NCBI GenBank assembly: GCA_011605725.1 | Contig: JAAOZP010000012.1 | Span: 1 to 64,000, forward strand | DNA length: 64,000 nt | Reading direction: 5' to 3' | From: Nitrososphaerota archaeon | Lineage (GTDB): Archaea > Thermoproteota > EX4484-205 > JAAOZP01 | Shown here: positions 1,195 to 47,081 of the stretch, piece after piece | How positions within the stretch are numbered: the stretch's first letter is position 1 | Layout: each line of letters starts with the position of its first letter | Made by a program: the position numbers and the translations under genes | The notes under the pieces: generated by a model | Databases searched by the model: none | Told to the model about the DNA's origin: nothing | What the model saw: only the letters and a program-made list of their open reading frames with translations

Positions 1195-2535
1195 TCAGAG
1201 CCCGGTTTCCCTCTTGTAGACTCTCTCGACGAACGAGTCCCTCACAGGCTTGTAAACCTTGTTGAAAAACTTCTGCTGGTCGAGCAGAACATCCTGCGGA
1301 AACTCCTCAAGATACTGTAAAGCCCTTCTCCAGGCTTCCTCATACGGAACCACCTCGTTTATCCTTCTAACTATTTGCTCATCATAATCCCTTGGAGTCT
1401 GTTCAGCATTACCTATCATTAACCACCCGTCTTCCGACAAGTAGGCAGTCTCATTCCCCAGTTGGAAAACGTTTCTCTCCTCAGCCTGCTTAGAAGGCTT
1501 AACAACATCCCTCCGGCCGGAAGGCTTCTTGGCTTCAACCCCTCTTTGCTTAGCCCAAGCGTAGAAGATTGCCCTGTTCAAGCCGAATGACTTGGATTTC
1601 TCGATGTCTCTCGTTAAAAGGAAGCATCGCGCAGCCTGCAGCAGCGCCATAACTTGGAACCTTCCAAGCCTGGGCGTTTCCTCTCCACGGCTCATGCTGC
1701 CCGAAGGCATGGGTGCCACTCTTTTAAAGTATCCTCCGACTGTAGATAAAGCTTTTTCCGCAAGCTCATCCGCCTCTCCTTCTTCAAAATCCATGTAAAC
1801 CGTCCTATGCTTGAAGCTCTCCGGGTTGACCCATGAAAGATCGAAGACGTCAATATCATCCGGTTTGAAGCAGACACACGAATAGTCCAGTTCCCTGTGG
1901 AGAGATAGTGGAAGAGTGAAAACCCTCTTAAGATCCATCTTATTCTCGATCTTTGCGCCTTCAGCTAAACCCGTAAGCTTCGGCTTAACCATCCTAGTGA
2001 CATACTCGACTATTGCGAAGGCAGCGTCCAGAGGATGATGCTTTTTAAAAAGCTCTCTGGAAAAAGCTTCTTCAGAAACATGCACGTGACACCCCCGGCC
2101 GCTCCATTTAAGATATACTGACTTCACAACCCTCTCCCTCTCAAGCTCCTCAACTATCAGCCTGCAAACAGCCAGTGTTTCACGCCACCTTTCAACATCA
2201 TTATCCACGTCCCAAGTCGGGGTGGAACGGTAAATGTTGGAAACATCCTCCAGGTCCTCGCTCACCGAGAGCCTAACGTATTTATTGGCTGAACCGTAGA
2301 AAGACCTAGGTTTAGCAAACCAGAATCCTCTCAGCAGCCTATTTACATCACTCGAATCCTTGAATCTAAGCGGCGACCCGTCTCTACCATACCTTATGAA
2401 AACCCTTCTCTCTAAGCCGCCTTCAACAGCTATCCACCTGTCTCTCCCATAGTTGAAGAGCTCTCCTGCAACCCTTGGGTGAGAGTAATACTCGAAAACC
2501 CAATCCAGGTCTCTCTGGCGACTTGGCTTCGCCAT
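1195..2535 (-). CDS. Archaeo-eukaryotic primase (AEP) superfamily protein fused to a C-terminal conserved domain of unknown function
   Basis: WDVDND (DxD motif I), WSGRGCHVH (motif II), MDLKRVFTLPLSLH (motif III); extra C-terminal domain RFQVMALLQAAR...GLNRAIFYAWAK. Confidence 0.6.
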   Translation of the reverse strand: MAKPSRQRDLDWVFEYYSHPRVAGELFNYGRDRWIAVEGGLERRVFIRYGRDGSPLRFKDSSDVNRLLRGFWFAKPRSFYGSANKYVRLSVSEDLEDVSNIYRSTPTWDVDNDVERWRETLAVCRLIVEELERERVVKSVYLKWSGRGCHVHVSEEAFSRELFKKHHPLDAAFAIVEYVTRMVKPKLTGLAEGAKIENKMDLKRVFTLPLSLHRELDYSCVCFKPDDIDVFDLSWVNPESFKHRTVYMDFEEGEADELAEKALSTVGGYFKRVAPMPSGSMSRGEETPRLGRFQVMALLQAARCFLLTRDIEKSKSFGLNRAIFYAWAKQRGVEAKKPSGRRDVVKPSKQAEERNVFQLGNETAYLSEDGWLMIGNAEQTPRDYDEQIVRRINEVVPYEEAWRRALQYLEEFPQDVLLDQQKFFNKVYKPVRDSFVERVYKRETGL

Positions 2536-18682: not shown

Positions 18683-18898
18683 ATGAATCCGGATAGCGCT
18701 GGATTATGGCTAATCCTCGCATTCCTCTCCGCTTTCTTCGCGGCATCAGTCACGATATTCGGTAAAATAGGCTTAAAGACTGTTGACCCCACTGTGGCTG
18801 CAGGGGTTAGGGCAGTAATAATGGCTGTAACCATGATCGGAATAATAATCATTCTTGGAAAAAGCTCGCAGATAGCGGAGTTAACGCGCGCGCTATAA
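18683..18898 (+). pseudogene. Truncated EamA/DMT transporter (N-terminal part only)
   Basis: WLILAFLSAFFAASVTIFGKIGLKTVDPTVAAGVRA is a typical EamA start; it ends at ACGCGCGCGCT (about 18884-18894). Confidence 0.75.
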
Positions 18899-23780: not shown

Positions 23781-24045
23781 TATACTCTCCACCTCCTTAT
23801 CAATTGTATCAATACGTTACACTTGACGGTATAATTTTAATTTTTCGGTCTATGAGAAACGCTTCTTCACCCAGTTTAAACATGGATTACCGCGTATCCG
23901 TAGGGTTTGTAGTACGGGTAGAGGGGTTCCATTCTTCCCTGCCTGTTCTTCACAGCATCCTAGTAGTATATGCTGCCCATGATTTTTCCTGGGGGTGTTC
24001 CTCATACTTTTTCCCTCTTCCTAGCGCGCGTTAGAAGAAAAGTTT

Positions 24046-24068
24046 ATTACTACCAAATAGGTAGTAAT
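24046..24068. promoter_or_regulatory. Inverted-repeat operator overlapping the TATA box of the vapBC operon
   Basis: ATTACTACC-aaata-GGTAGTAAT, perfect 9-bp arms. Confidence 0.65.
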
Positions 24069-24083
24069 TCAATGGTGGTCATC

Positions 24084-24314
24084 ATGGGTAGCTATATAAC
24101 GGTTTCCACGAAAGTTAAGAAAGAAGTCGTGGAGAAAGCTCGGAGACTAGGAGTGAACATCTCCGAGGTTTTAAGAAGGACCCTTGAGGAGGAGGTGAGG
24201 AGGAGGGAGCTGGAGCATTTGGGGAATAGGCTGAACGAGCTGGACAGCGTCCTTGAAAAAATCGATGTGAAGGAAATTGTGAGGCTGATAAGGGAGGACA
24301 GGGAGAGCAGGTGA
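24084..24314 (+). CDS. Antitoxin (CcdA/VapB-like)
   Basis: ITVSTKVKKEVVEKARRLGVNISEVLRRTLEEEV...IREDRE; directly upstream of a PIN toxin. Confidence 0.85.
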   Translation: MGSYITVSTKVKKEVVEKARRLGVNISEVLRRTLEEEVRRRELEHLGNRLNELDSVLEKIDVKEIVRLIREDRESR

Positions 24315-24320
24315 ATATTC

Positions 24321-24719
24321 TTGCCATACTTGTTCGACTCCTCCTCCCTGGTCTACGCTGTGAGGCTTAAGAGGATAGGTGTCTTAGCCGGGGGCTGCAT
24401 CCAGGGGTTAACGGTATATGAGGTGTTAAACGCCCTGTGGAGAGAAACTTATGTTTTAAGAAAAATGAGTAGAAAAGAGGCGGAGAGCCTGCTGGACGTG
24501 TTCATTCGACTATTAAGTTATCTAAAGATGCTTGACCCAAGGGGTTTAGAAAGCGAGGTGTTTAAGATAGCTGTTGAAACTGGTTTAACTGTGTACGATG
24601 CATCGTATCTTGCCTTAGCACATAGGGAGAAGCTTACTCTGGTTACGGAAGATGTTAAGCTGAGAAATGTAGCAAGCAGGATGATACGGGCAGTGAGCTT
24701 GGATGAGTTAACAGCATAA
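24321..24719 (+). CDS. vapC: VapC PIN-domain toxin
   Basis: YLFDSS, YEVLNA, TVYDASY, LVTED. Confidence 0.9.
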   Translation: MPYLFDSSSLVYAVRLKRIGVLAGGCIQGLTVYEVLNALWRETYVLRKMSRKEAESLLDVFIRLLSYLKMLDPRGLESEVFKIAVETGLTVYDASYLALAHREKLTLVTEDVKLRNVASRMIRAVSLDELTA

Positions 24720-24789
24720 ACCCATGTTTTTAACTTCAATCATTAGCGCGCGCTTTAAAAGTTTAAATACTGGTACGTAGCTATTGGTT

Positions 24790-25119
24790 ATGCCAAAATT
24801 TGTAGCTGTCCACAAATGGACAAGAGAGACGAATATCGCATGCATCAAAGAGCTAATAATAGGCTTTACAGCCATGCTTAAGGGAGAGGCTCCTAAAGAC
24901 ATAATACTGCACTACACTTGGTCAAGGTTAGACGATCCCTATGGAGTCTTCTGCTGCTGGGAGGCGCCGAGCAAAGAAGCTCTGGTTAAGCTGTTCGAAA
25001 AATACTTGCCTACACTGTTGAAATACACTGAGTTTGTGCCAGTTTTACAGATGTATCCGCCAACCGTAGAGTACGAACTTAGCTTATTGCAAGCGATACG
25101 CGACATGTCTTCGAAGTAG
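24790..25119 (+). CDS. Small hypothetical protein (dimeric alpha/beta barrel-like)
   Basis: Intact ORF with own TATA box (TTTAAATA) and T-rich terminator; VFCCWEAPSKEAL motif. Confidence 0.6.
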   Translation: MPKFVAVHKWTRETNIACIKELIIGFTAMLKGEAPKDIILHYTWSRLDDPYGVFCCWEAPSKEALVKLFEKYLPTLLKYTEFVPVLQMYPPTVEYELSLLQAIRDMSSK

Positions 25120-25271
25120 GCTTCAGGCTTAAGACTAAGCCACCCTTTTTTTATATTGGACTTAAAAGTTCAGATGGAGCATGCGCGCGCTTTTAATGAC
25201 TATCCTACTACTTCTGCGACTGGAGCAGCCCCGGAAACATCTACTACCTCGACTTAACATTAGCGCGCGCT

Positions 25272-25378
25272 CGAAATTGCAAGGGAGAATAATTCTAGAC
25301 GTTGGATATGGAACGGGACGATGGACATTTTGTTTAGATTCTAAAGGTTACGTAGCTATTGAATCAATTTTACACTTA
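25272..25378 (+). pseudogene. Internal fragment of a class I SAM-dependent methyltransferase
   Basis: IILDVGYGTGRW (motif I), bracketed by TAGCGCGCGCT and AAGCGCGCGCA. Confidence 0.6.
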
Positions 25379-25574
25379 AAGCGCGCGCACTAGGAACGTT
25401 AGATTTTGAGAGAACGCGCGCGATGTGGCATGTATCAGCAGGAGGATCGTAGGGGCATAGTCTGTACTTTTTATAATTGTAGCCGCCCTAATGTTAAGGT
25501 TTTTAGCACACTGGAAGGCGTAGACTGGGAAAGGAAGATAAGGCTTAAATCCTCTTTACCTGTTTACTTCTCTA

Positions 25575-25880
25575 GTGGTATACTTGAAGAAGGTCAGTCT
25601 TTATATAGATGAGGAATTGTGGATGAATTTCAAGGAGAACGTTTTAAGGAAGCACGGGACCCTGAGAAAGTTGAGCAGCGAGGTCGAGGAATCGCTTCGA
25701 CACTCGCTTGTCTGCGAAGAGCTGTTACTCGGGTCTTTTAAGAAAATTGGGATCAATAGTGATGTTTCAGTTACTTCTGAGAAGATAAAGCGAAACAGGC
25801 CTAGGCTTCGAGGACCACCTTCTGAAATACTCATCCGGGAAATGAGGCGCGTGCTGAAAGCAAGATTAAAGAATTGTTAG
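25575..25880 (+). CDS. Orphan RHH-type antitoxin; cognate toxin apparently lost
   Basis: KKVSLYIDEELWMNFK...LSSEVEE and C-terminal SEILIREMR typical of archaeal VapB; GGCGCGTGCT follows immediately. Confidence 0.6.
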   Translation: MVYLKKVSLYIDEELWMNFKENVLRKHGTLRKLSSEVEESLRHSLVCEELLLGSFKKIGINSDVSVTSEKIKRNRPRLRGPPSEILIREMRRVLKARLKNC

Positions 25881-26025
25881 AAAAATAGCGCTGCTGAAAG
25901 TTTAGAACCCATAGGGAAACAATATACGACGGGTTACTAGACTTGGGATGAATTTTAAAAGAATATTCAGAAGCTTAATTCATAAAGTGCCCTTTTGGTC
26001 TACGCGTGCAGGATCCTGGATTGTC

Positions 26026-26457
26026 TTAACGACTTTCTTCTGGTTTATCTCGAAGCCGTAGCACGCGCTTTGATATCTCATAGTCTTGGATTTCTGATGC
26101 TGATTGCGATATTAGTCTACTATGTAACTCTTTACTTCTCATAATCACGGGTTTGCCCTCCATTAGTATTTTTAGTCTCAGCTTAGGATTTAGATCCTGC
26201 AGTTGTGCCAGATCCACCTGAAAACCCAGTTCTAATTCTATTTCAGCCCCTAACTCTAAGAATTCCTCAAGCGTCAATGAAGGCACAGAGTAAACAGCTA
26301 TATCTATGTCCCTGAAAGCATTTCTCCTTATAAAACTTCCAAAAACATATGCTAGCTTAATTTCACCCTTCTTTTCGAGGATTTCTTCAAGCTTCTGTAA
26401 TGCTTCTGCTTTACCTTCCTCGCTCAACCTGTAATACTTAACTTTATCGTAATTCAT
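26026..26457 (-). CDS. Minimal nucleotidyltransferase (MNT) antitoxin
   Basis: AYVFGS...DIDIAV, VDL. Confidence 0.88.
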   Translation of the reverse strand: MNYDKVKYYRLSEEGKAEALQKLEEILEKKGEIKLAYVFGSFIRRNAFRDIDIAVYSVPSLTLEEFLELGAEIELELGFQVDLAQLQDLNPKLRLKILMEGKPVIMRSKELHSRLISQSASEIQDYEISKRVLRLRDKPEESR

Positions 26458-26857
26458 ACTCGCTCTCCACGGCCCTCAGAAAATCCTTAATCCGTTGAAA
26501 ATCCTTCTTAGCAGACTCGTAGATTCTACGATCATCTATCACCCAATATCTATGAATAAGCAGGTTTCTTAATCCTATGATTTTGATGATATCCTCAGCC
26601 TGAGTTGTAATCCCGGATTTCTCTAAATATCTGACGCAGTCTCTATAGGATTCCGGCTCATAATTGAGGCCTTCCATGGTAATATGTAAACAGGCACTAC
26701 CAATAGCTTCAATCAGAACTATTATCTGATACCTTAAAGAATATTTCTCATCATTCGTTAAATTTTCATAGGGCTTTGAAACTATCCTCTCTATCTCTTT
26801 AATGCATTCTCGCGCTTCATCAATTCTACTTCTTAAGTAGGCTTTATTAATGACCAA
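26444..26857 (-). CDS. HEPN (DUF86) ribonuclease toxin
   Basis: RNLLIHRY (R-x4-H-x-Y); overlaps the MNT gene. Confidence 0.88.
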   Translation of the reverse strand: MVINKAYLRSRIDEARECIKEIERIVSKPYENLTNDEKYSLRYQIIVLIEAIGSACLHITMEGLNYEPESYRDCVRYLEKSGITTQAEDIIKIIGLRNLLIHRYWVIDDRRIYESAKKDFQRIKDFLRAVESEYELR

Positions 26858-27143
26858 GACTCCACTCCATTAAGTGCAGCCAACTCGTATATAACTCTTA
26901 TAACGCGCGCTTTCAAAGCCTGCTTTCGAATTAACCTTGACTAAAGCCAAGATAAAGGATAAAAACCATTGCGCGCTTACGCGCGCGGAAGATAACGACT
27001 TCGGCTATGAGCGTCCTCAGACATTTCATAACGGTTTCAATTTAGAGAATTTCGGCCGTAGCGCGCTGGATTCTCACAAATCATGAATCGACTGGAGATT
27101 TGAAGCAATTACTTACATGCTCTTAGATCCTGGAGTATCTGAT

Positions 27144-27908
27144 TTATCTCATGTAGGAAGCTATGAGCGTTATCCCCCTCTTCTTTGCTTCCTGCTCTGC
27201 CGAAGGGTGTACGTAGTAACCAAACATCAGCTTATACACGTTATTGGGAACAGTTCTCTTCACCTTTTCGGCTAATTCATCGAAGCCTTCCACATCGCTC
27301 GAATATATTCTGGATCTAGTTTCTCCCAGAATGATTATCTTCGCGCCTCCTCTGTTGCCCTCTCCGTACAGGTTAATCTCCAATTCCTCATTGTTGACCT
27401 TAATGAACTTTCTAGTTAAATTCTCCAATTCTATGCCCTCATGCCTGTAGAGCCATCCAGGTACAACAACCCTAGCTATGTCTTCGAGCCCGAATCCGAT
27501 TGTGTCCGATAGCCTGCCGACATGCCTGGAGAGTTCCTGTAGGGCTCCTTCAGTCCTCGCTTGGGCCTCAGCAAGCTTCTCAACAGCGTGCTCTAAACTA
27601 TCATGCCTCTCAGCAAGCTTCTGAACAGCACGATCTAAACTATCATGTCTTTCAGCAAGCTTCTGAACAACACGCTCAAGGCCATCATGCCTCTCAGCGA
27701 GCTTCTGAATAGCGCGCTCCAGGCTACCATGTCTCTCAGCAAGCTTCTGTATGGCCTCAGTAAGTCTAGCCTGCCCCTCTTCAAGTCTAGCCTGTCCGCT
27801 CCTAAGATCCTCAATGCCGAGTAAACCCACCACGGCATAGCGGAACTCCTCATCCTCCTTCAGCAATGTGAGCATCTTACGCTTGAAGTCGGCTGTAGTC
27901 CTAGCCAT
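27144..27908 (-). CDS. Archaeal coiled-coil repeat protein with C-terminal PD-(D/E)XK-like domain (DUF3782-like architecture)
   Basis: LLKEDEEFRYAVVGLLG N-terminus, heptad repeats, IGFGLED, ELEINLYG...GETRSR. Confidence 0.75.
   Translation of the reverse strand: MARTTADFKRKMLTLLKEDEEFRYAVVGLLGIEDLRSGQARLEEGQARLTEAIQKLAERHGSLERAIQKLAERHDGLERVVQKLAERHDSLDRAVQKLAERHDSLEHAVEKLAEAQARTEGALQELSRHVGRLSDTIGFGLEDIARVVVPGWLYRHEGIELENLTRKFIKVNNEELEINLYGEGNRGGAKIIILGETRSRIYSSDVEGFDELAEKVKRTVPNNVYKLMFGYYVHPSAEQEAKKRGITLIASYMR
27567..27797. repeat. Intragenic tandem repeats: about 4.5 x 42 bp plus about 2 x 21 bp
   Basis: Units begin at about 27567, 27609, 27651, 27693 and 27735 (QKLAERHDSLxxAV); GQARLEE/GQARLTE at 27762-27797. 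Confidence 0.9.
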
Positions 27909-28335
27909 TATACTACCAGTTAATTCCGGTTGGAATGCGGCTTATTAAATTTACGGATTACTGGAAACGCGGCTTAAGACATTCAACTGCGTTCGCGGTA
28001 CGCACTCAAGCGAAAGAATCTCTAGTGTCTCTCATCGAGAACTACTTTGCCGATATAGATTGGAATATACGTGCGCTGCTGTGTGATACAACTCTCGCAA
28101 TATTTCTGAATAAAAGATTTTCTACATTTCCACCATTTGACATGGGTGCTTAAAAATGCTTGATTAGAATCATATTTAGATGGAGGTTGTCCAACAAGCA
28201 TGGAAAAACCTTATTTTCAGCCTTCACCCATATTTTCCAGCTATGGTTAGGCTTGTTCCAACCCTAGCGCGCGCTTCGTAACAGTTGAGCATCCCTTTGA
28301 ACCACGGTTTTTCTTCCATTGACAGTACGCGCGCT

Positions 28336-28407
28336 TAAGAGATGGTTGAACTCGTATTTGATTTGTCCTCTGGTTACTGGTATTCTAGGCATGTTTGTGT
28401 TGAACGC
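28336..28407 (-). pseudogene. About 70-bp fragment of the pyrimidine-dimer glycosylase gene
   Basis: Near-identical to about 30311-30381 (PRIPVTRGQIKxEFNHLL); flanked on both sides by GCGCGC-type motifs. Confidence 0.85.
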
Positions 28408-28418
28408 TAGCACGCGCT

Positions 28419-28506
28419 GGGCTTCCCCACTTTTAAAGAGCTTGTCTAAAGTTGAAAGCTCTTCTCTTCGATCCACAAATCTTACAATCATGATTGTAAG
28501 AATCAT
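28419..28506 (-). pseudogene. N-terminal fragment of an archaeal ATPase-family gene
   Basis: RFVDRREELSTLDKLFKSGEAQ; second partial copy at about 30699-30745; 22-bp palindrome at 28480-28501 at the gene start. Confidence 0.7.
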
Positions 28507-28939
28507 GAATCTACAATATACAAACGTTGCTAAAGACTTGCTGCAGCACGAAAAAACACATGATTCCGATCCGGTTTCTTAACCTTTAAAAAAATGTCAT
28601 GATCCGCGCGCTTTCTTTCTGCTTACTTAAAATCCTCTTTAAACATGCAGGCGGAAAGTATTTCACCCGTAGCAGAGTCTGCGAAGATGTCTACGGCAAG
28701 GGCCATTATACGCTCCTCTCCAGGGTTAAGCAAGAGTATTGCCCTTACGCCTCCTACAGGCTTCCCCCCTGTCTTTCACTTCATCTATATCAATATTGTT
28801 TCTAAAGTCTGTGCCCTCGAGAAATATGTCTCCTATTCTAATGAACACCTTCTTAACCCTATTATCAACCCCTATCGGAATCCTGCCCTCAAACTTTTCC
28901 ATAGCTTTTGCCTTCGACACCGGGATTTCGTCTTCTAAA

Positions 28940-29610
28940 AACTTTCTTACTATGTTTCCGGGAATTTTGTTTTCACTCGATTTATCCATGAGAACGTCAT
29001 TATTCGACACATCATTTTCCTCGATAACGTTTTTCGAAGACTGGCGGAAGCAGACACCGGAATACCGATTATCTATTATCCTGTTTCTAGAAACAGTGTT
29101 GTTTAAAGATTTAAAAAAGTAAAGACCATGGCCGTTTTTAACACCGCTGTTTTCAGAAACCACATTATCTGAAGAATAATATAGGTCAACGCCATCGGCC
29201 GTATAGGCAATATGGTTCTTGAAAATCCAATTATTATTACTTTTCCACAGATAGATGCCACAGTAATTATTCTCGCTAATCTCGTTATCAGAAACAACAA
29301 TGTTTGAAGAATTGCTAATAAAACACCGAAGTCGAAATTTTTTATCTTCAGATCCCTAATCGTAACGTTCCTAACCTCTCGCAGGCGGAGTCCGAATCCT
29401 GCGTCCCCAGCCTTCTGATCCCCCTTACCCAGTAACGAATATCCGTTTCCATCTATCACCACATCGCTTTCTTGAATAGTGATCTTGCCGTGAATATCCT
29501 CAGTAAAAGTATAGGTGTTTCCAATTCTTTTCACGGGTATTGTTGACTCAAGTAAATCTCTAATCTTACCACCTTTAACATAAAACGTCGTTTTTTCATC
29601 CCGCCCAGCC
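28940..29610 (-). pseudogene. NosD/right-handed parallel beta-helix protein, frameshifted and truncated
   Basis: TYTFTEDIHGKITI..VVIDGNGYSL, NVTIRDLKIKNFDFGV, then Asn-rich repeats (SNIVVSDNEISEN, NNTVSRNRIIDN) in a second frame. Confidence 0.7.
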
Positions 29611-29619
29611 TTCTCAAAT

Positions 29620-29942
29620 AAGAGAAGGGCGGAGGAAGGCTTAGAGGAGAAGATAACTCCCACGATCTGCTTAGCCGAGGTCTATGCGAAAACCATCAAG
29701 GTGGAAAGCGAAAAGCTTGCTGAAAAACAAAGGAGGTTCATCAAGGAAAGAAGCATCATCCTTCACTGGATGAAGCGATCGCTATTGAATCCGCTAGGCT
29801 AGATGTGGTTATGAAGAAGAAGGCTAAGGGCTGGAGGCTAGCTGACTCAATAGTCTATTCAACAGGATTAGTTAAGAAGGCTAGGATAGTGACTGGTGAT
29901 GAACACTTCAAAAACCTGGAAAACGCGCTTTTTATCGGATGA
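29620..29942 (+). pseudogene. VapC PIN toxin remnant (5' end missing, frameshift near 29765)
   Basis: Own translation: TPTICLAEVY.../LDEAIAIESA...WRLADSIVYSTG...IVTGDEHFKNLENALFIG*. Confidence 0.7.
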
Positions 29943-29970
29943 ACATTGCTAAACAGAAGTAGCGCGCGCT

Positions 29971-30087
29971 ATTATTTATACACTCGACATGGAGCGTTTC
30001 GGCAAAATAAACTGGATAAAGGCGGTTAACCCTATTCCGGAGGATAAAATAAGGGAGCTACGCGTCTTCTTAAAGGGAAGCGTATAA
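29971..30087 (+). pseudogene. C-terminal fragment of a probable PIN-domain gene
   Basis: IIYTLDMERFGKINWIKAVNPIP...*; begins exactly at the TAGCGCGCGCTA palindrome (29960-29971). Confidence 0.45.
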
Positions 30088-30187
30088 ACAATACCGGCGT
30101 CTAGGCTACGCTTTCACGGCTAGGCTGGTAACGCAGGAGGAGATGGGTGTTGTAGCCGGGGTTAGCCTCCTGCACAGCGTGCGCTAG

Positions 30188-30622
30188 CTATTTCGATTTT
30201 TCCCATTCTTCTATTGGGCCTTCAGTAACGTAGAAGATCGGATGCTGCTGGATTATCTTCATTCTCCTTAGCCTAATGTATAGCTCTTCATCTCTTTCTG
30301 AAAGCTTCTTTAAAAGATGGTTGAACTCGTGTTTGATTTGTCCTCTGGTTACTGGTATTCTAGGTATGCTTGTGTCGAACGTTCTTATTTTTGCAAGGTC
30401 AAATTCGTAACTTCTCCTTTCCCCCTCCAAGTATATGTGGTAGAGATAGGTGCCTACGTATAGAATTGGGTCCGCAGTTCTTCTGAACCTGATTAGTTGC
30501 GGGTGATTCACGTATCTTTCCGTCTTCCCCTCTAAGACTTTTTGAGCTAGAAGCGCTTCCCTCCAGACAGCTACAAGCCCTTTGGCGTCGAGGTACTTTG
30601 GATGGATTGACCAAAGACGCAT
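30188..30622 (-). CDS. Pyrimidine dimer DNA glycosylase / endonuclease V family
   Basis: MRLWSIHPKYLDAKGLVAVWREALLAQKVL, YVNHPQLIRF. Confidence 0.9.
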   Translation of the reverse strand: MRLWSIHPKYLDAKGLVAVWREALLAQKVLEGKTERYVNHPQLIRFRRTADPILYVGTYLYHIYLEGERRSYEFDLAKIRTFDTSIPRIPVTRGQIKHEFNHLLKKLSERDEELYIRLRRMKIIQQHPIFYVTEGPIEEWEKSK

Positions 30623-30762
30623 TTTACTGAACTTTTTCTAATAAGTATTTATTTAACTTTTCTGACTCCTTCTATTTGTTCAATTAAGCGCGCGCTGCTG
30701 TCTAAAGTTGAAACCTCGTCCTTTGATCCACAAATCTCACAATCAGCGCACTAGCGCGCGCT

Positions 30763-31428
30763 TCACAAGCCTGTTCAGCGATGCAAGCCATGAGATGGCC
30801 ACCTCTATTCTAGAACAGTTCTTAACAACAGAATTGCATGGTTCAGCTGAAGTATTGGGCTTAATAGAGGGCTTGGCAGACTTCTCCTCAAGCTTCGTTA
30901 AGACGTATTCGGGCTGGCTCAGCGATAAATTGGGCAGGAGAAAACCTCTTGCAACACTAGGTTACACGCTTACAGGAATAGCGCGCGGCGCTTGCCGGCA
31001 GCGTAAGCGCATTCCTTTACATGCTGCTTAACGTTGGAGCAGCAGTTTTCGCCTATGTATTCGGCGCGTTAGGCGACCGATTTAGCAAAAGAAACCTGTT
31101 AGCACTAGGATACATAGTTTTCAGCATATACTGCATAGGCTCCATTCTAGCACCATCAAACATCTGGATTTACGCCTTCCTTTTCCTCTTAGCAGGTGTA
31201 GAAACAGGCGCCATAGACGCGACTGAAAGATCATACGCTGCTGAGCTGCTTCAGGAAAATAGAAGGGGAACAGGCTTCGGGTTGCTCAGCACGATCAACG
31301 GAATAGGAGACTTCACGTCAAGCGTCACCGCAGGAATATTATGGGTGTCGATCTCCACTAGCGCAGCTTTCGCATTTGGAGCAGTACTTGCAGTGGCAGC
31401 AACAGCAATCTTAATGATTCGCAAGTAA
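30763..31428 (+). pseudogene. MFS transporter with 5' truncation and large internal deletion
   Basis: TSLFSDASHEM...GWLSDKLGRRK (N-terminal half) joined at about 30979-30992 to GALGDRFSKR...RRGTGFG (C-terminal half). Confidence 0.8.
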
Positions 31429-31539
31429 GCTTAAGCGTGCGCGAAAAACATATGATTCCGATTTGGTTTCTTAGCCTTTAAAAAGATATAGCGCGCACAC
31501 ACACTATGTTTTTAAAGAACAATGTTAAGCAACTATCTC

Positions 31540-32646
31540 TTACTCTTCCGAGTCGGTGGCGAACATCTCCGGAAACTCTTCTCTTAAGAACTGCATCTTC
31601 TCTAGAGGAATCTTAGGCAGCCTCTTCATCCTCTTATCAACCACGATGACTAAAGTCTCCTTATCTAAGTCCTCTTCCTTCAGGATTCCTTTCTCATTCA
31701 GCACTATTCGTCCCTTCCTATCAGGCTTTCCGAGGAGCTCGACGCCCCTCTCCGTCTTAATCGCCAATCTCAACCTATAGCCGTCAAGGTTATACACCTT
31801 AAAGCCATCCCAGAGACAAAGCTTCACACTCTTCTCTCCTCTCTTGTCCCGCTCGAGGTTTCCGCTCTCCAACGGGTACTTCCGAAGGAGCGGTACTCCC
31901 TCGTAGAGCCCTGGGCGCCTGATCCCACTATGCCACCCCCCATAGACCCTGTAGCGAGTAGGGTAGTCCTCAGGGCAAACTATCGTGCTCTCGTAGCATT
32001 CCCTCCTCTCATCGTTCGGCAGCCACTCCTCCCATCTCCTCTTCAGCTCGCTTAGTATCTCCACTCTCCTCAGCGTATTCTCTATTATCTCGTCATCGCT
32101 CATGCCTGCGACGCTGAACTTCATGCGGCAGTTTAGAAAGGTTTCGCTCACCCTAACTTCAGACATATCCACGTTGTATTTTCTCAAGACCTCGTTCGAG
32201 ATCTTGGAGTAGACGCAGAGGTCCTTAACTACAGCCGGCACAAAGCGTGCCAGCTTCATGACGTCTTTTCTTCTCTCAAGGAGCTGCGGGTGGAGAATGC
32301 TTGGGACCCACACAGCATAGTACATCTTCCCCATGAATTCCAAGTTCACGCCTCCCCGAGCAGCAACTTCAATGATGTTCTCTTTACTGTTGAAGTAGAG
32401 ATAGTCGATGAATGGGGGATACGGGTCTATCCAGTCGTCAGGCCATTTTATGCTTCCCTTCCACTCGAAGTAGATGCGCTCTAAGTTTCCTCCACCGATC
32501 ATGGTACCTAGCTCCCTGCCGTCCGACGTCTTCACCGGATAATCATCATACCTTCTCCAAGACGTTCCTTCCAGCCTGAACTTGCAGCTGCATCTTTCCT
32601 TCAACGCTTCAACCAGCTTTTGAAACACGTTCTCGCTCATCATCAT
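31540..32646 (-). CDS. Hypothetical protein, candidate immunity protein
   Basis: Soluble 368-aa ORF overlapping the stop of the upstream toxin-like ORF; no recognisable family. Confidence 0.45.
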   Translation of the reverse strand: MMMSENVFQKLVEALKERCSCKFRLEGTSWRRYDDYPVKTSDGRELGTMIGGGNLERIYFEWKGSIKWPDDWIDPYPPFIDYLYFNSKENIIEVAARGGVNLEFMGKMYYAVWVPSILHPQLLERRKDVMKLARFVPAVVKDLCVYSKISNEVLRKYNVDMSEVRVSETFLNCRMKFSVAGMSDDEIIENTLRRVEILSELKRRWEEWLPNDERRECYESTIVCPEDYPTRYRVYGGWHSGIRRPGLYEGVPLLRKYPLESGNLERDKRGEKSVKLCLWDGFKVYNLDGYRLRLAIKTERGVELLGKPDRKGRIVLNEKGILKEEDLDKETLVIVVDKRMKRLPKIPLEKMQFLREEFPEMFATDSEE

Positions 32647-34120
32647 CCACCTTTAAACTTCTCTAAGATCTTCTCGACACTATGCTTCTTCCATGCGAAT
32701 TCAATTTTCTCCATAGTAATTTTTATCGCAAGCACATAAATGTTTTCCGGTAATTCGTAGTTGTGGTCCTCTCTAGCATTTTTTATGCGGTTCCAAAGTT
32801 CTTCCTTCAATTCATCGCTATCCAGATGCTTAGTCAGGCTTTCCTCCGGGCTGGTTATCAGCTTAACCTCCAGGGCGGCAATAATCCTTTCTTCAGGATT
32901 CTCAGGATCCATGACGCGCACGTCCAATGGCTCCCTCGCATTGTTGCCAACTTCGTCGATGAACAGGTTCTTGCCCTCCAATACTTCAACCTCTTCGCCT
33001 ATTCCGAAAACCCTCTTGTTCTCCTTCACGAACTCGGCGGCTATCATGTGGCCGGCGACGCCCTCATCATATTTCGGGTTAATCCCGCTGAGGCTCCGTA
33101 TTACTCCGACAGCATCCCCGTATTCTTGAAGGTTCCGGGTTGGCACCCATCTCGCGGCTCCGCTTACCGTATCGGTCTCTTTCGCGAAAGAGTACTTGTC
33201 GCCTATGATGCTTCCCAGGGTTTCTTTGAAGACGGTGCTGTCCCGCGATATCCTGTAGCTGGAGAACCCCCCGGTGCTCGGGTCGTACTTCACGTAGGCT
33301 GCGCCCTGGGGCTCATCCTCCCCGAAGAATATTTTGAAAACCCTGTAGCCGTTTTCATCAGAAGGCGGGGGCATGCTGTAGACGTAGCGCCACCCCTCCC
33401 TACCGGACCCGTACCCTATTCTTGAGGACCATTCTCCCTGATCGTTCACCGTGGAAACTACGGCTAACGACTCCGCGTGCTCTCCTTCGCTGAAGAATGG
33501 GAATACTATTTCCACGCCCCCCATGCCGCCTGCAATACCGTGCGAGTATTTAGATTCCCCGGTTAAAGTCACGCCGTAAAGGTTGAGAAAGTATTTTCCA
33601 CCGCTGTAGGATAGTTGCCCCGGCCCGTTGTACAGGCTTAGAAGAAAAGCCTCGTCGACCCTTCTAACCAGCCTTATCACGTATGTCCCCTCCCCATCAG
33701 AGGGGAAGCATATTGCCGACGTGGACGAGTAGAGCCCCCTCACCCTGTGGTGCTCGACACTCGGCTCGCCGAGCCTCCAGTACGCGATCTCGTAAAACCC
33801 TTCGCCGATGCTTCGAATATAATCAGCATCAGGGTTCTGAACAGTATACTTTATTTCTCCGCCTTCGCCGATTCCAGTTTTTATAATCAGGTTTATGTCG
33901 CTCCAGCCTGGGTAAACCTCGACGAAGCGTTCGGCCTCAAGCACGGTGAAGCTTCCCTCCCTCGCAGGCGCAAGCCGGTGCACAGTGTATTCTCCGACTT
34001 GCTTAGCCGCCAGCTCCGCAGCAATCCTGACCTCCCGGCCGTCGAGACGCGTAACCACTGTGAACCATGCTCCCACCTTAGGCTCCCCCAGAGCCTGGTA
34101 AACCTCCGCGTGGATAAACG
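32643..34120 (-). pseudogene. C-terminal remnant of a large polymorphic-toxin-like protein with a restriction-endonuclease-like (PD-(D/E)XK) tip
   Basis: Reading frame stays open up to the GGCGCGCGCT junction at 34121; C-terminal EGVAGHMIAAEF...PLDVRV...ALEVK. Confidence 0.45.
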
Positions 34121-34130
34121 GGCGCGCGCT

Positions 34131-35039
34131 TATCCTTCTTTAACGAATCGATTTGCCTAAGCATCTCCTCGACATCATGCTTGAGGGCAGTGTAGTTTTC
34201 AAAGAGCTCCCTGTAGGCTGTCCTTAAAGAGTGGTTTAGCCTGATGCTCGTTCCAATTCTTCCGAAACCCTTGGCGACTACGAAGACGTTGAGCAGGCCC
34301 TCGCCACCGGTCCTCACGACGAGGCTTTCTCCAACCCTAGTAACGTTCTCCTCAACGGAAGAACCATCCGGCTTAACGAGCCTGGCGCCAAACCCAGCCA
34401 GCTCACCGGGATACGTGAAGGTTAAGACGGTCTCGTCCACACCCGCCTCAATAGATGCGAGCCTGAGCTCAGGAGGCGTTGGAACAGGCTCGCCTACGAC
34501 TCTAATCATGAAGTCCCCCGGCCTCTTGCTCGTGGCGTTCAGGGAAGCATGGATCGTATGCTCGCCGACGTTCACGATGAAGCTGTTGTTTGAAAAAGGA
34601 GGATCGTCGTCGATACTAATCCAGAGCTGAGTGCCGTCGAGGGTAAACATTGAAACAACGACGACGTAGAAGTCCCCGGTTACCACGACGTTTGGAAGAC
34701 TGATGGTGTACCAGTCTAGCGTAGCGTTCTTGAAGACACTGCTGGGGAGGAATGCTGACCAGTAGACAGTGTTTAAACCAGCATCCCAGATTTGAACGTA
34801 GAAGACTTGAGCGCCCCTGAGGACGCATGTGGCGTGAAGCCTTACCGCCGTTATCCTCCAGCTCGCGGAGGGAGGGGAGACCTCACCATCGCAGCATAAG
34901 GGTAGAAGTCGCTCCAGCCGTAGTCAGCGTTACCATCATCATGGGCAAGCTCGAAAGAAGAGGCGTAAACACTTGGAGCAGTGTTGAGAAACAGCGTTGA
35001 GAAGGCTAACAACAGGAGCGCGAAACCAAGCTTCTTCAA
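34131..35039 (-). pseudogene. Secreted/surface protein, frameshifted near 34880 and truncated at 34130
   Basis: Signal peptide MKKLGFALLLLAFSTLF, ELAHDDGNAD; restoring one base gives RFSPPSASWRITAVR...VVTGDFYVVV; ends in a coiled coil. Confidence 0.65.
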
Positions 35040-35230
35040 GCTTCTTCTATAAGAATGGGAAGAAATATAAAAATATTGCGTCTCAAAACGACACACCATG
35101 CTTCTAAACGCATACAGCAACGTTCCAAAAACAACATCCTCAAACCCTTTTATGCACCCATGTTCATAATAACAGGATTGCCAGCTGGGGAAAAACTTTT
35201 TATTTCAGAAACCTGTTGAAATACTTCACG

Positions 35231-35419
35231 TTGCTGCAGCGGTGCCACGTGTGTGGAAGAACAGATGAGACCTGTAAGCCATGTCCCTACTGCAACTGGT
35301 GGTTCTGCGGACAGCATTTGGACCCTGAGCAGCATGACTGCACGGGTTTAAAAATCATGGGAAAACCGGTTGATGCTTCAAAGCCTGAAAAACAGGAGAC
35401 ACTCGTGCCGCGCGCGCTA
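35231..35419 (+). pseudogene. AN1-type zinc-finger protein, truncated
   Basis: CHVCG...PCPYCNWWFCGQHLDPEQHDC; CCGCGCGCGCTA at 35408-35419. Confidence 0.6.
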
Positions 35420-35793
35420 TGGATTCTAACAGACTTGGCAACCGGTTCAGCGTTGAAGAAAACACGTCAATAGACAAGTGGTTTTTAAAGGTGTACAGCG
35501 TCGCATCCATCGATAAGGATTTTAACGATGTTCTCTTTACTGTTGAAGCAGAGATAGTCGATGAATGGGTAGCCTTGGAAAATCGAGGCTTACACTTCAC
35601 TCGTGATAAAGCACATAGATCGCTAGAAGGATATAGTTAGCATTTTATATTTTACCATGACGGAATTATCGATAAAAAGTTTTATTCAGAAATATAACGG
35701 GATGATGGAAGAGCGTATGCTAAGCTTATTGATTCATAATAAAACAGGGCCTCGAAGTGTGCGCTATTTTTCATTATTTATTTCACTATATAT

Positions 35794-44479: not shown

Positions 44480-44537
44480 AACTAAAAATTAAAAAATACT
44501 TATCTGAAAAATTTCTAATAGAGGTGGAAAATAAAAG

Positions 44538-44660
44538 ATGAAGGTAATTATTCTCGAAAAAGGAAGCAAGGCATGGTATAGGTATACGGCTTGTAACACT
44601 GTAGGATGCGGCCAGAACTGCACCCCTGTCGGATGCGGGAGCTTTATCTCTCCCTATTGA
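44538..44660 (+). CDS. Putative RiPP precursor peptide, 40 aa: MKVIILEKGSKAWYRYTACNTVGCGQNCTPVGCGSFISPY
   Basis: Not in the ORF track; GAGGTGG RBS at 44521; repeated CxxVGCG core; ends 23 bp upstream of the radical SAM gene. Confidence 0.8.
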   Translation: MKVIILEKGSKAWYRYTACNTVGCGQNCTPVGCGSFISPY

Positions 44661-44683
44661 GACTTTAATTCAGAAAAGAGATA

Positions 44684-45586
44684 ATGTCCTCTATTGAGAC
44701 TATCGGTCAAGAAAGGAGATTAAGATTATCTGGATATTGCCTCATCATTCCCTACGATAAAGAAACTTACATACTTTTTCATACATTGAAAGGCGGGATT
44801 GCACTTATTGATGTAGAAGCCAAAAATTTTTTGGAATCCCACAGTAAATCAGGCTTTGCTGCTAGTGAAATCAAAGAATCGCAAGTAAGAGAAGCGGTTC
44901 TCAATTTACTGGAATCAGGGTTTCTTATAGATGAAGAAGTCGATGAATCTGCATTATATAGGTATTTTTTAAACAGGAATCGCTTTGATCATTTTCATGC
45001 AGCCTTCTTGATTTTGACTACCTATGCTTGTAATTTAGCCTGTAAGTACTGTTATCAAGGCTTACAAAAAAGAACCGACATCATGACGCTACATATAGCA
45101 GAAACAGTTAGTAAGTGGATATGCAAGTTGTTAGACTTTAGGAATTCCCGGTCAATCGGTATAATTTTTTATGGAGGTGAACCGTTGTTAAATATAGCAG
45201 CATTAAAATCCGTTAGTAATAATTTATTAAGCTGGAGTAGGCGTACAGGCCGTGAATTATTTACAGGACTTATAACAAATGGAGTATTGCTAACAAGACA
45301 ACTTGCAAATGAATTAGTAGATTCATATGGCTTAAGGCAAGTTCATGTTACGTTTGACGGTAACAAACTTTATCATGATTTAAGGAGATGTTTCCCAAAT
45401 GGAAGCGGCACTTTTGACATCATCTTATCCAACTTACTAAGCTACGTAGATTCCGTGGCTACTATAACTGTGAGAGTAAACTTAGATAAGCATAATGTTG
45501 GAACAGTACCTAAACTATTGGATGTCTTTCAGAGTTACGGTCTTGAAAAGAGCGAGATACGCCTTAGATATAATGGGTTTAAATGA
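44684..45586 (+). pseudogene. Peptide-modifying radical SAM enzyme (RRE-like N-terminus), lacking the expected C-terminal SPASM domain
   Basis: CNLACKYC, FYGGEPLL, ITNGVLL, VTFDG...HDLRR, VRVNLD; sequence switches to ABC ATPase near 45540. Confidence 0.8.
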
Positions 45587-46170
45587 ATTCGAAACTAGTT
45601 ATCCTTCGACACTGTCTTCAGGATATAGACAAAGAACAGCTTTAGCCAGAGGGCTAGCTGTAGACTCCCCAATCTTCTTAGATGAGCCTACGATGAACCT
45701 TGACCCAATTTCAGCAGAGGGTTTCAGAGAGTTCGTGAAGAGCACACTTAGTTTAAGGTTGAGACGCACCATAGTGTGGACGACGCATGTTTTAAGTGAA
45801 GCTGAAAAGCTTGGAGATAGAATTGGAATAATGAAAAAAGGGAAATTTATCATTTGCGATTCTCTGAGAAACTTGATAAAAGGTGCGAATCTGAACACGT
45901 TCAAATTAACGATCTCTGGTATAAATGTGGACGCGTTAGAACAGAAGATCTCTCAATTTAAGAAAAGCTTCGATAAGGGCATTACGGTTCGTCTGCTAAG
46001 CTATGATAACGGAATTACTGAGATAAAAGTGATAGGAGCAGTGGAACACGAGCAAGTAGAAAAAAAACATAAGCTCATGCCTGGACGGCTCTCAAAGGAT
46101 TTTAGAAATCAATGAAGTGAAGCCCTCGTTAGAAGAAGCATTCGTTTTTTATGCTGGTGAATTTCAATGA
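45540..46170 (+). pseudogene. ABC exporter ATP-binding subunit, N-terminal half missing, frameshift in an A8 run (46060-46067)
   Basis: LSSGYRQR, IFLDEPT and TTH present, no Walker A; removing one A gives ...KPSLEEAF...* overlapping the permease ATG. Confidence 0.8.
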
Positions 46171-47081
46171 GCGAACAATATTATCGTAAGTTGTTACGAA
46201 AACCGAGGCTAAGTATAAGGGATTACATTCCAGTATTCTCCGTTTTCGTAAAGCGCTCAGCAAAACAAATAAGTTTCTATAAGACGAGTTTTGTTTTCAA
46301 TATTGTTGGAGTAATTACGGGCGTGCTTTCTTACTATTTCGTGAAATTGACACTGAATCCTTCTGAAATCATAAGCAATTTGGCGCCGTATGGAGGGGAC
46401 TTTATGGCATTTCTTATAGTTGGCATCGCCTTCCAACAATATATAGATCTTGCGCTACACGGGTATTATGAAGGCCTTGCAAGTGCATATTGGGGCTCGA
46501 CCTTAGAACAGTACCTTGTTTCACCGTTGAATCCATTGGTTTTTTCTATAGCACAAGTAATTTGGAGTTTCATCATCAGGAGTCTAAACTTTTTGTTATA
46601 CCTCATAATTGGCATTGCATTGTTTAAAGTGAAGATATTTCCCCTTAGTATTATACCTGTAATTTTGATATTTTGCATTTCAACCATTGCTGTATCTGGA
46701 CTCGGCCTTCTGTCGGCAAGCACTTTTATGCTAATGAACGCAAAGGGTTGGGAGGACCCGATTAGGTGGGCAATCACTACGTTAGAGGGATTAGTCATAG
46801 GAACCTATTATACCCCGGAAATACTTCCGATTCCTTTACAAGTCCTCGGTCTTCTGCTCCCGCAAACTTACGCGTTAGATGCATTAAGACGTTTGCTCAT
46901 AGTGGGTGCTACTTCTGAGAAAGTATTACTTGCACACTCCTTCATCCCAGTAGATCCAATTATAGGTGATATTCTTATCCTACTTGCGATTTCTATTATT
47001 TATGTTCCCCTCGGATACTACGTATTTAACAGAGGAATAAGGTACGCCCAGAAAATTGGTAATTTAACAAGACGGGTCTAG
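46167..47081 (+). CDS. ABC-2 type exporter permease
   Basis: About 6 TM helices, STLEQYLVSP, GTYYTPEILP, LPQTYALDALR. Confidence 0.88.
   Translation: MSEQYYRKLLRKPRLSIRDYIPVFSVFVKRSAKQISFYKTSFVFNIVGVITGVLSYYFVKLTLNPSEIISNLAPYGGDFMAFLIVGIAFQQYIDLALHGYYEGLASAYWGSTLEQYLVSPLNPLVFSIAQVIWSFIIRSLNFLLYLIIGIALFKVKIFPLSIIPVILIFCISTIAVSGLGLLSASTFMLMNAKGWEDPIRWAITTLEGLVIGTYYTPEILPIPLQVLGLLLPQTYALDALRRLLIVGATSEKVLLAHSFIPVDPIIGDILILLAISIIYVPLGYYVFNRGIRYAQKIGNLTRRV

Follow-up and report, generated by a model that had tools for sequence, protein, structure and literature searches.

Alternating GC tracts at deletion joins in an archaeal genomic island: probable scars of filler-dependent end joining

Background

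How does the same short GC-rich palindrome come to lie at the ends of so many broken genes? The question is raised by a 64,000-nucleotide stretch of a Nitrososphaerota archaeon (GenBank assembly GCA_011605725.1, contig JAAOZP010000012.1, positions 1 to 64,000; hereafter the window), in which alternating GC tracts crowd an island at 24022-35419. The original prediction, made from the sequence alone, had a 10-12-bp palindrome mark most gene breakpoints and proposed that it is added or left when DNA is deleted or joined. Comparison of strain alleles, paralogues, and related genomes indicates that the tracts are new at the join and that they are probably scars of a synthesis-dependent end joining, in which the 3′ ends independently receive GC tails and the tails anneal.

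Results

The origin of the tracts was followed in strains that are 97-100% identical. In strain L120, a 401-aa MFS gene is whole and carries no tract. In the window strain, the remnant of this gene (30708-31428, forward strand) has lost 475 bp, in place of which there is an irregular 11-base GC filler at 30981-30991, and strain L119 lacks 260 bp and 22 bp elsewhere in the gene, with a new filler at each. These are three independent deletion alleles of one gene, and the filler is new each time. In L125/L210, position 23907 is joined to 29977 via a GC filler. New filler was present at all six non-repeat deletions of at least 100 bp, while two further deletions abut an older tract and are ambiguous in this respect, and three large events lie between repeats of 14-44 bp, one of them between two old tracts. 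At seven fresh deletions, the parent flanks have no homology in common and the join holds new filler only; joins inside existing homology were found at a tract-free 26-bp deletion and at a 503-bp deletion that reused old tracts. As predicted, intact paralogues and parent alleles lack the motif at the join, and deletions carrying it are polymorphic among strains, the three MFS deletions among them.

Old tracts were later used as short homologies and slip by 2 bases, and an alternative is that the GC runs come first, as fragile or recombinogenic sites (Z-DNA-like or HIP1-like) that cause deletions or guide them, and persist at the join. This would account for the 503-bp deletion between two old tracts, for a 655-bp deletion that ends in one, and for the recurrence of events next to 29960, where L120 and L125 have tracts at differing offsets next to one and the same flank. 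However, it covers secondary events only, as in seven deletions both parent sides are free of such runs and intact genes are nearly tract-free, unlike the situation with HIP1. The MFS alleles refute GC runs as the origin of the tracts and leave the secondary effect standing, making this alternative quite improbable as a full account.

In favour of a library or assembly artefact (a linker, a tailing kit, or a chimera), the data are assemblies throughout; against it, identical joins recur in many samples from different studies between 2017 and 2025, decay by transitions is inherited, tracts are also present in the complete genome G105, and their occurrence is lineage-specific. At least a third of the island was recovered from eleven runs, which belong to about ten studies (2017-2025). 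Of the 30 window tracts tested, 23 are spanned by independent strain contigs, so that the joins are not assembly chimeras, and run X8 spans the tract at 29960. The tracts are real, and an artefact is hardly conceivable.

Paralogues within the genome gave a weaker signal. Alignments between them end at a perfect tract in one copy in 19 of 170 cases (11%) compared to 1.3% at random, and many of these 170 ends are no true breaks. The claim that most gene breakpoints carry the motif thus holds for large fresh deletions, and not for small indels or paralogue alignment ends. Pieces of DNA were also moved, not just lost: a 99% identical copy of window 24874-25036 at C16:243-406 has a tract at both ends.

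Genome-wide, the tracts are abundant and lie mostly outside genes. The most overrepresented 8-mer of the 2.23-Mb genome is GCGCGCGC, with 229 copies versus 8 expected, and together with the 12-mer (28 copies versus 0.02 expected) it leads all non-CRISPR words, bearing out the expected genome-wide enrichment. In the window, TAGCGCGCGCTA at no more than 2 mismatches has 22 matches versus 1.5 expected, a number reached in 0 of 100 shuffles. Perfect alternating G/C runs of at least 6 bases number 28, of which 21 lie inside 24022-35419, and decayed copies are additional, making the earlier estimate of about 35 copies a fair one. The unit is a (GC)3-6 run whose outer base is mostly A (76%), with TA common (41%), and runs of 8 bases prevail genome-wide (n = 154, against 32 of 10, two of 12, and one of 16). 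Mapping across the genome showed the tracts to be grouped in islands, and 172 of 189 (GC)4+ tracts do not fall within the interior of open reading frames (ORFs) of at least 200 aa, though such ORFs cover 73% of the genome, in agreement with the reported scarcity of GCGCGC within intact genes. Strain deletions, tract-free intact homologues, spanning assemblies, and this non-gene enrichment together support the proposal that the motif is added on deletion or joining.

Tracts decay with time, mostly by transitions as had been noted, since one-mismatch copies differ by 68 transitions and 23 transversions (6 and 33 for the control word). Strain single-nucleotide polymorphisms carry the same transition bias, so that decay driven by methylation need not be invoked. 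Window tracts private to this strain are all undecayed, which, with the transition-biased mismatches, is expected for scars of different ages.

The ends of the tracts follow a rule. Read 5′ to 3′ towards the tract, the final base of the parent DNA predicts the one that follows, with A after T, G after A, C after G, and G after C. All 14 fresh ends obey this rule (seven A-ends, five T-ends, and two C-ends), the A being untemplated, that is, not in the parent, at all five T-ends, and G-ends obey it in paralogue pairs that are 95-100% identical. Random breaks extended by the rule were simulated with no free parameters. Given an A directly before the tract, the predicted frequencies of the base before that one were T.56, A.19, G.135, and C.114, and those observed were.54,.22,.12, and.11, respectively; A directly before the tract was predicted at.66 and observed at.76. 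The same end statistics were found in G105. The two ends of a tract are statistically independent, with TA on both sides in 32 of 189 tracts versus 32.2 expected from independent ends, and palindromy ends at the tract without extension into the flanks, which rules out snap-back and target duplication. In place of the fixed 10-12-bp palindrome originally described, the unit is a variable-length tail, with TA on both sides in just those 32 tracts. Irregular fillers, which have a one-base break in the alternation and make up about 10% of A-T-flanked fillers genome-wide, are interpreted as two tails that were joined out of register. Five sites in G000 have double tracts with exactly TA between them, other short spacers being almost absent, and the end rule alone leaves these unexplained.

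The prediction had also offered the excision footprint of an element or a short recombination site as causes. A transposon or site-specific recombinase with palindromic ends or core (IS630/mariner-like with a TA target, or protelomerase-like) would fit the TA flanks, the concentration of tracts in mobile islands, and the patchy distribution. Against this, the TA is not duplicated and is often missing from the parent, the A is untemplated at the five fresh ends, tract length varies from 6 to 16, and neither parent breakpoint holds a site. Moreover, 290 sites have no conserved flank beyond 2 bases, a BLAST search with flanks found no shared element, and G016, the tract-richest relative, has no tyrosine recombinase match. 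In the absence of target duplication and of an element with such ends, and with parent flanks free of tracts, the footprint and the pre-existing recombination site are rejected; this reading is largely refuted and very improbable, and of the causes offered, end joining with a (GC)n filler is the one that stands.

For this filler end joining, we infer a mechanism with breaks as the trigger and with tailing and tail-tail annealing as its steps. A double-strand break followed by resection would expose 3′ ends, and either end would be tailed separately, with A after T, G after A, and G and C alternating thereafter. Because a (GC)n tail is self-complementary, any two tails could anneal irrespective of the original ends, and fill-in, trimming, and ligation would leave (T)A-(GC)3-6-T(A) in place of the lost DNA, with a mode of 8 bp. 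Behind the rule may stand a next-base preference set by the protein, or else a short fixed template (read 3′-ATCGCG) to which the end pairs by one base. The scars afterwards decay by transitions, slip by 2 bases, and serve as short homologies.

In the main rival, which predicts much the same as tailing, a free self-complementary oligonucleotide (about TA(GC)4TA) is captured and splints the ends through 1-3 paired bases. Such an oligonucleotide could be made de novo by primase or copied from old scars, in which case scars would seed scars and no special enzyme would be needed. Capture would likewise yield the end rule and the mode of 8 bp, accounts for the lack of a gene that co-varies everywhere, and is suggested by the five GC-TA-GC double tracts, which resemble read-through of the far-side TA. 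However, the 14 fresh ends show no additional copied flank bases, the irregular 11-base fillers would require two pieces, and in high-GC genomes where tracts arise by chance, they are not in excess of the control word (10/12 in G154 and 22/20 in G262). We regard capture as unlikely.

By the names of its homologues, this hot-spring archaeon is most likely a member of the Brockarchaeota. The distribution of the tract was examined with its 10-mer. Within the closer subclade of the genus, copies number 118 in G016, 88 in G000, 70 in G002, 33 in G008, 32 in G007, 18 in G006, and 16 in G009. G010 and G013 have few (3), and the word does not occur in G003, G004, or G014. Tract-rich genomes of the genus measure 2.0-2.3 Mb and tract-free ones 1.2-1.8 Mb, so the trait goes with larger accessory genomes, a relation that is confounded by clade. 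Among 401 genomes of the phylum, two other families each or together include a few in which the 10-mer outnumbers its reversed control. One of these few, G105, which we take to be Thermofilum adornatum, is a tract-rich, complete genome of 1,750,259 bp from another class, and in one order of the Bathyarchaeia, 28 of 151 genomes have at least 20 copies. L082 (Ca. Marsarchaeota G1 BE_D) has 19 alternating G/C runs in 21 kb, with differing flanks, a density which suggests that Marsarchaeota may carry the trait too.

The writer of the tract is most likely a primase-polymerase (AEP). Core PriSL is a possible though doubtful writer; in Saccharolobus, it has terminal transferase activity, anneals over 2-4 GC pairs, and biases insertions at CRISPR breaks towards C/G (PMC12019639). 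PriX was not found in five genomes. An accessory PriS-like protein, here called AEP2, is a somewhat unlikely writer, and an enzyme other than these two has a little less than an even chance. AEP2 is a PriS-like AEP of 270-290 aa that overlaps the end of a second RadA (G000 C7:378918-379793). Its motifs I-III are intact, with invariant D112, D114, H168, and D220, and its predicted structure (pLDDT 85.8) has PriS and the LigD polymerase as best matches; by these motifs and the predicted PriS-type fold, it is assigned to the AEP superfamily. Whole or broken, AEP2 is present in G000, G002, G006, G007, G008, G012, and G016, that is, in 7 of 9 genomes of the tract-bearing subclade and in none of 8 further genus members. 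Among 185,579 species scanned, it turned up in Brockarchaeota-like genomes and Bathyarchaeia alone, and it was not found in viral contigs. Around AEP2 loci outside Brockarchaeota, alternating 7-mers number 351 versus 29 expected (12-fold), compared to 74 versus 94 at control loci. In the Bathyarchaeia order mentioned above, all four AEP2 carriers are tract-rich, one of them being the chosen centre, against 28 of 151 genomes overall, and none of the four carriers of a control island gene is.

AEP2 stands in a row of genes at G000 C7:376638-380751 (L109, L130), where PolY, a second full-length RadA, AEP2, and a HEPN-MNT pair follow one another. The overlap of RadA2 and AEP2 is preserved in five relatives, often with a GC tract at its edge. 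This arrangement resembles a mobile cassette for repair or mutagenesis, and we found no paper describing it.

Several other candidates were rejected as writers. AEP3, a LigD-polymerase-like family of AEPs present in 160 of 401 Thermoproteota genomes, does not co-vary with tracts, as it occurs in all genus members and in 1 of 28 in the tract-rich Bathyarchaeia family. Its members include a 446-aa protein of the window (1195-2535, reverse strand) and a short copy at G000 C7:146131-147045, which sits after a KaiC/RadC-like ATPase. Reverse transcriptase (PF00078) was found in 0 of 5 genomes, a search that very divergent ones could escape, and a tyrosine recombinase was not found in tract-rich G016. 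PolY is absent from G105 and present in G003; PolB copy number does not co-vary with tracts. RadA2 is present in G098 and not in G138. The second ATP-dependent ligase is also present in G003, and both it and the LigD-polymerase-like AEP occur in tract-positive and tract-negative genomes. The number of PF01896 matches in 151 Bathyarchaeia shows no co-variation, and this profile misses an intact AEP2. Subtraction of G098 genes from those of G105, with 40% of G098 covered, left 28 candidates and no obvious writer.

Further observations concern these gene families. The second ligase (534 aa, G000 C9:42756-44360) is also found in G003, G105, G138, and G370, and in G370 it adjoins a LigD-like AEP. 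G105 has a second RadA in a four-gene cassette (L289:10327-12727) with a winged-helix protein and a probable PD-(D/E)xK-like one, and G098 has additional RadA copies.

Within the window, the left edge of the island is marked by a GC tract with one transition (24022-24033), seen in nine strain contigs. Behind a PIN gene lies a (GC)4 tract (24744-24755), where L122 has 2564 bp extra containing four more tracts; with the (GC)4 tract at 25261-25272 it makes a 14-bp homology, later the site of the 503-bp deletion (L119/L124). Another (GC)4 tract (25183-25190) ends a fragment whose C6 paralogue has no tract, and two tracts follow at 25381-25388 and 25415-25422, the second differing by 2 bases among strains. 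A stretch of 335 bp with a 101-aa ORF (25549-25883) is tract-free here and replaced by an 11-base GC filler in X8 and X11, and 8 bp within it (25561-25568) are swapped for (GC)4 in the related species L021, whose flanks are 93-97% identical. A decayed tract in the tail of an MNT gene (26059-26070) is common to 13 contigs. Of three tracts at 26901-26987, the last is joined to 26319 in L119, with about 655 bp lost and possible reuse of an old tract. Tracts at 28265, 28328, and 28408 surround a 72-bp piece of a glycosylase gene (28265-28419), and an undecayed tract at 28605-28611 has no match in other strain contigs.

The perfect copy reported at 29960-29971 is indeed present, reads TA(GC)4TA, and has an inner right T that is missing from the parent allele of L120. 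A decayed tract ends a pyrimidine-dimer glycosylase gene (30175-30186), and the second of two tracts at 30686-30763 stands for 228 bp including the MFS start. Farther right, a (GC)4 (34122-34129) interrupts a gene that runs on without a tract in the 93% identical L021 copy, and an undecayed tract (35408-35419) is found only in this strain among the contigs seen. Outside the island, a tract at 18884-18895 truncates an EamA gene that continues at six related loci, and in six contigs (L217-L222), an irregular GC filler of 11 bases takes the place of a 1953-bp AT-rich block (44532-46484). Older decayed tracts at 1138-1149, 5789, 14724, 47101, 47239, and 48807 are common to 4-8 contigs.

Two features of the island are of another kind. 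A DUF8196 coiled-coil gene has a 42-bp tandem repeat (27566-27749) whose copy number varies among strains (254-310 aa), and its GCGCGC at 27712 is coding sequence, not a scar. Direct repeats of 43 bp (32374-32416 and 35527-35569) flank a 3.1-kb block of three genes, a repeat-bounded cassette that is absent in L120/L121.

Discussion

Several observations weigh against tailing by a primase-polymerase. All joins were read from assembled contigs and the mechanism was deduced from sequence, the end rule was framed with part of the junction data in view, and the genomes compared are phylogenetically non-independent. Two paralogue ends break the rule, and C directly before the tract is rarer (.10) than predicted (.21). 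Filler is absent at deletions of 26, 32, 34, and 54 bp and at several smaller indels, indicating that tagging varies with the size of the deletion and that tract writing is not the sole route of joining. As PriS is found in tract-positive and tract-negative genomes alike, PriSL leaves the patchy distribution of tracts unexplained, and its reported insertions are of 1-2 nt only (PMC12019639). The complete genome of G105 is rich in tracts and yet has neither AEP2 nor a remnant of it, and 24 of 28 tract-rich Bathyarchaeia lack AEP2, which makes it a lead and not a general cause. The end rule also tracks the host and not AEP2: G105 keeps it without AEP2, and AEP2-bearing Bathyarchaeia deviate, with different end statistics (A.41, C.33).

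With these points in the balance, we tentatively propose that an archaeal primase-polymerase may give any broken end a self-complementary GC tail, in effect universal sticky ends. Homology-free joining through this fixed linker would delete, shuffle, and capture island DNA and leave datable tags, with the RadA-linked AEP2 as one portable version. A sticky end of fixed sequence written by the cell itself would, if true, be a new kind of end joining together with a new nucleotide-adding activity. The window contributes an allelic series in a single gene, an end rule with predictive power, and a candidate enzyme that co-varies with the tracts, and the rule and the candidate enzymes make the mechanism directly testable. 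In each genome, the tags flag hundreds of events of gene loss and shuffling and give them a rough date, and an enzyme of this type could be used to join DNA ends that share no homology. Open-access literature yielded no description of the motif, of an archaeal filler of this kind, or of such ab initio synthesis.

To our knowledge, only microhomology joining has been shown for double-strand breaks in archaea without Ku. A close parallel is microhomology end joining by PriSL in Saccharolobus (PMC12019639; PADT, PMC3333859), which likewise involves break repair by an archaeal AEP, terminal transfer, a few annealed GC pairs, and G/C-biased insertions; its indels are mostly 1-2 bp and have no fixed sequence. 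Unlike these, the tracts described here are 6-12 strictly alternating bases, accompany deletions of up to kilobases, and are inherited by the hundred, and the seven fresh deletions are not joined within homology of both parents. In non-homologous and theta-mediated end joining, fillers written by TdT, Pol mu, the LigD polymerase domain, or Pol theta are random or copied from nearby DNA. Both these fillers and the tracts add new bases that create pairing between ends, but the tract is one alternating sequence at unrelated loci.

Defined repeats are also written elsewhere. In de novo addition by telomerase, which needs a reverse transcriptase and an RNA template, the broken 3′ end sets the register of the repeat and one end is capped. 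The tracts share the setting of register by the 3′ end and differ in that two ends are joined. RDE-3 writes poly(UG) tails. DRT3 is likewise reported to make a defined dinucleotide repeat, poly(GT/AC), without a genomic template (PMC13174585, PMC13314766). The products of DRT3 and RDE-3 are free defence DNA or RNA tails made by reverse transcriptases or Pol-beta-type enzymes, not chromosome joins, and no reverse transcriptase for writing of the DRT or telomerase kind was found here (PF00078, five genomes).

HIP1 of cyanobacteria is likewise a hyper-abundant, lineage-specific, 8-bp GC-rich palindrome, and is a fixed word found throughout genes and tied to methyltransferases (PMC5861425, PMC4390886). 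Unlike HIP1, the tracts vary in length, lie outside genes (172 of 189), cluster in islands, and are newly written at joins. A C5-methyltransferase-like ORF of G105, the one such ORF compared, has no homologue in G000. No parental TA is duplicated on both sides as with IS630/Tc1/mariner elements, and no fixed-length site is present beforehand as with att, attC, or protelomerase sites. The tracts thus behave like the filler of an end joining and lack the defining features of microhomology joins, of transposon footprints, of recombination sites, and of HIP1.

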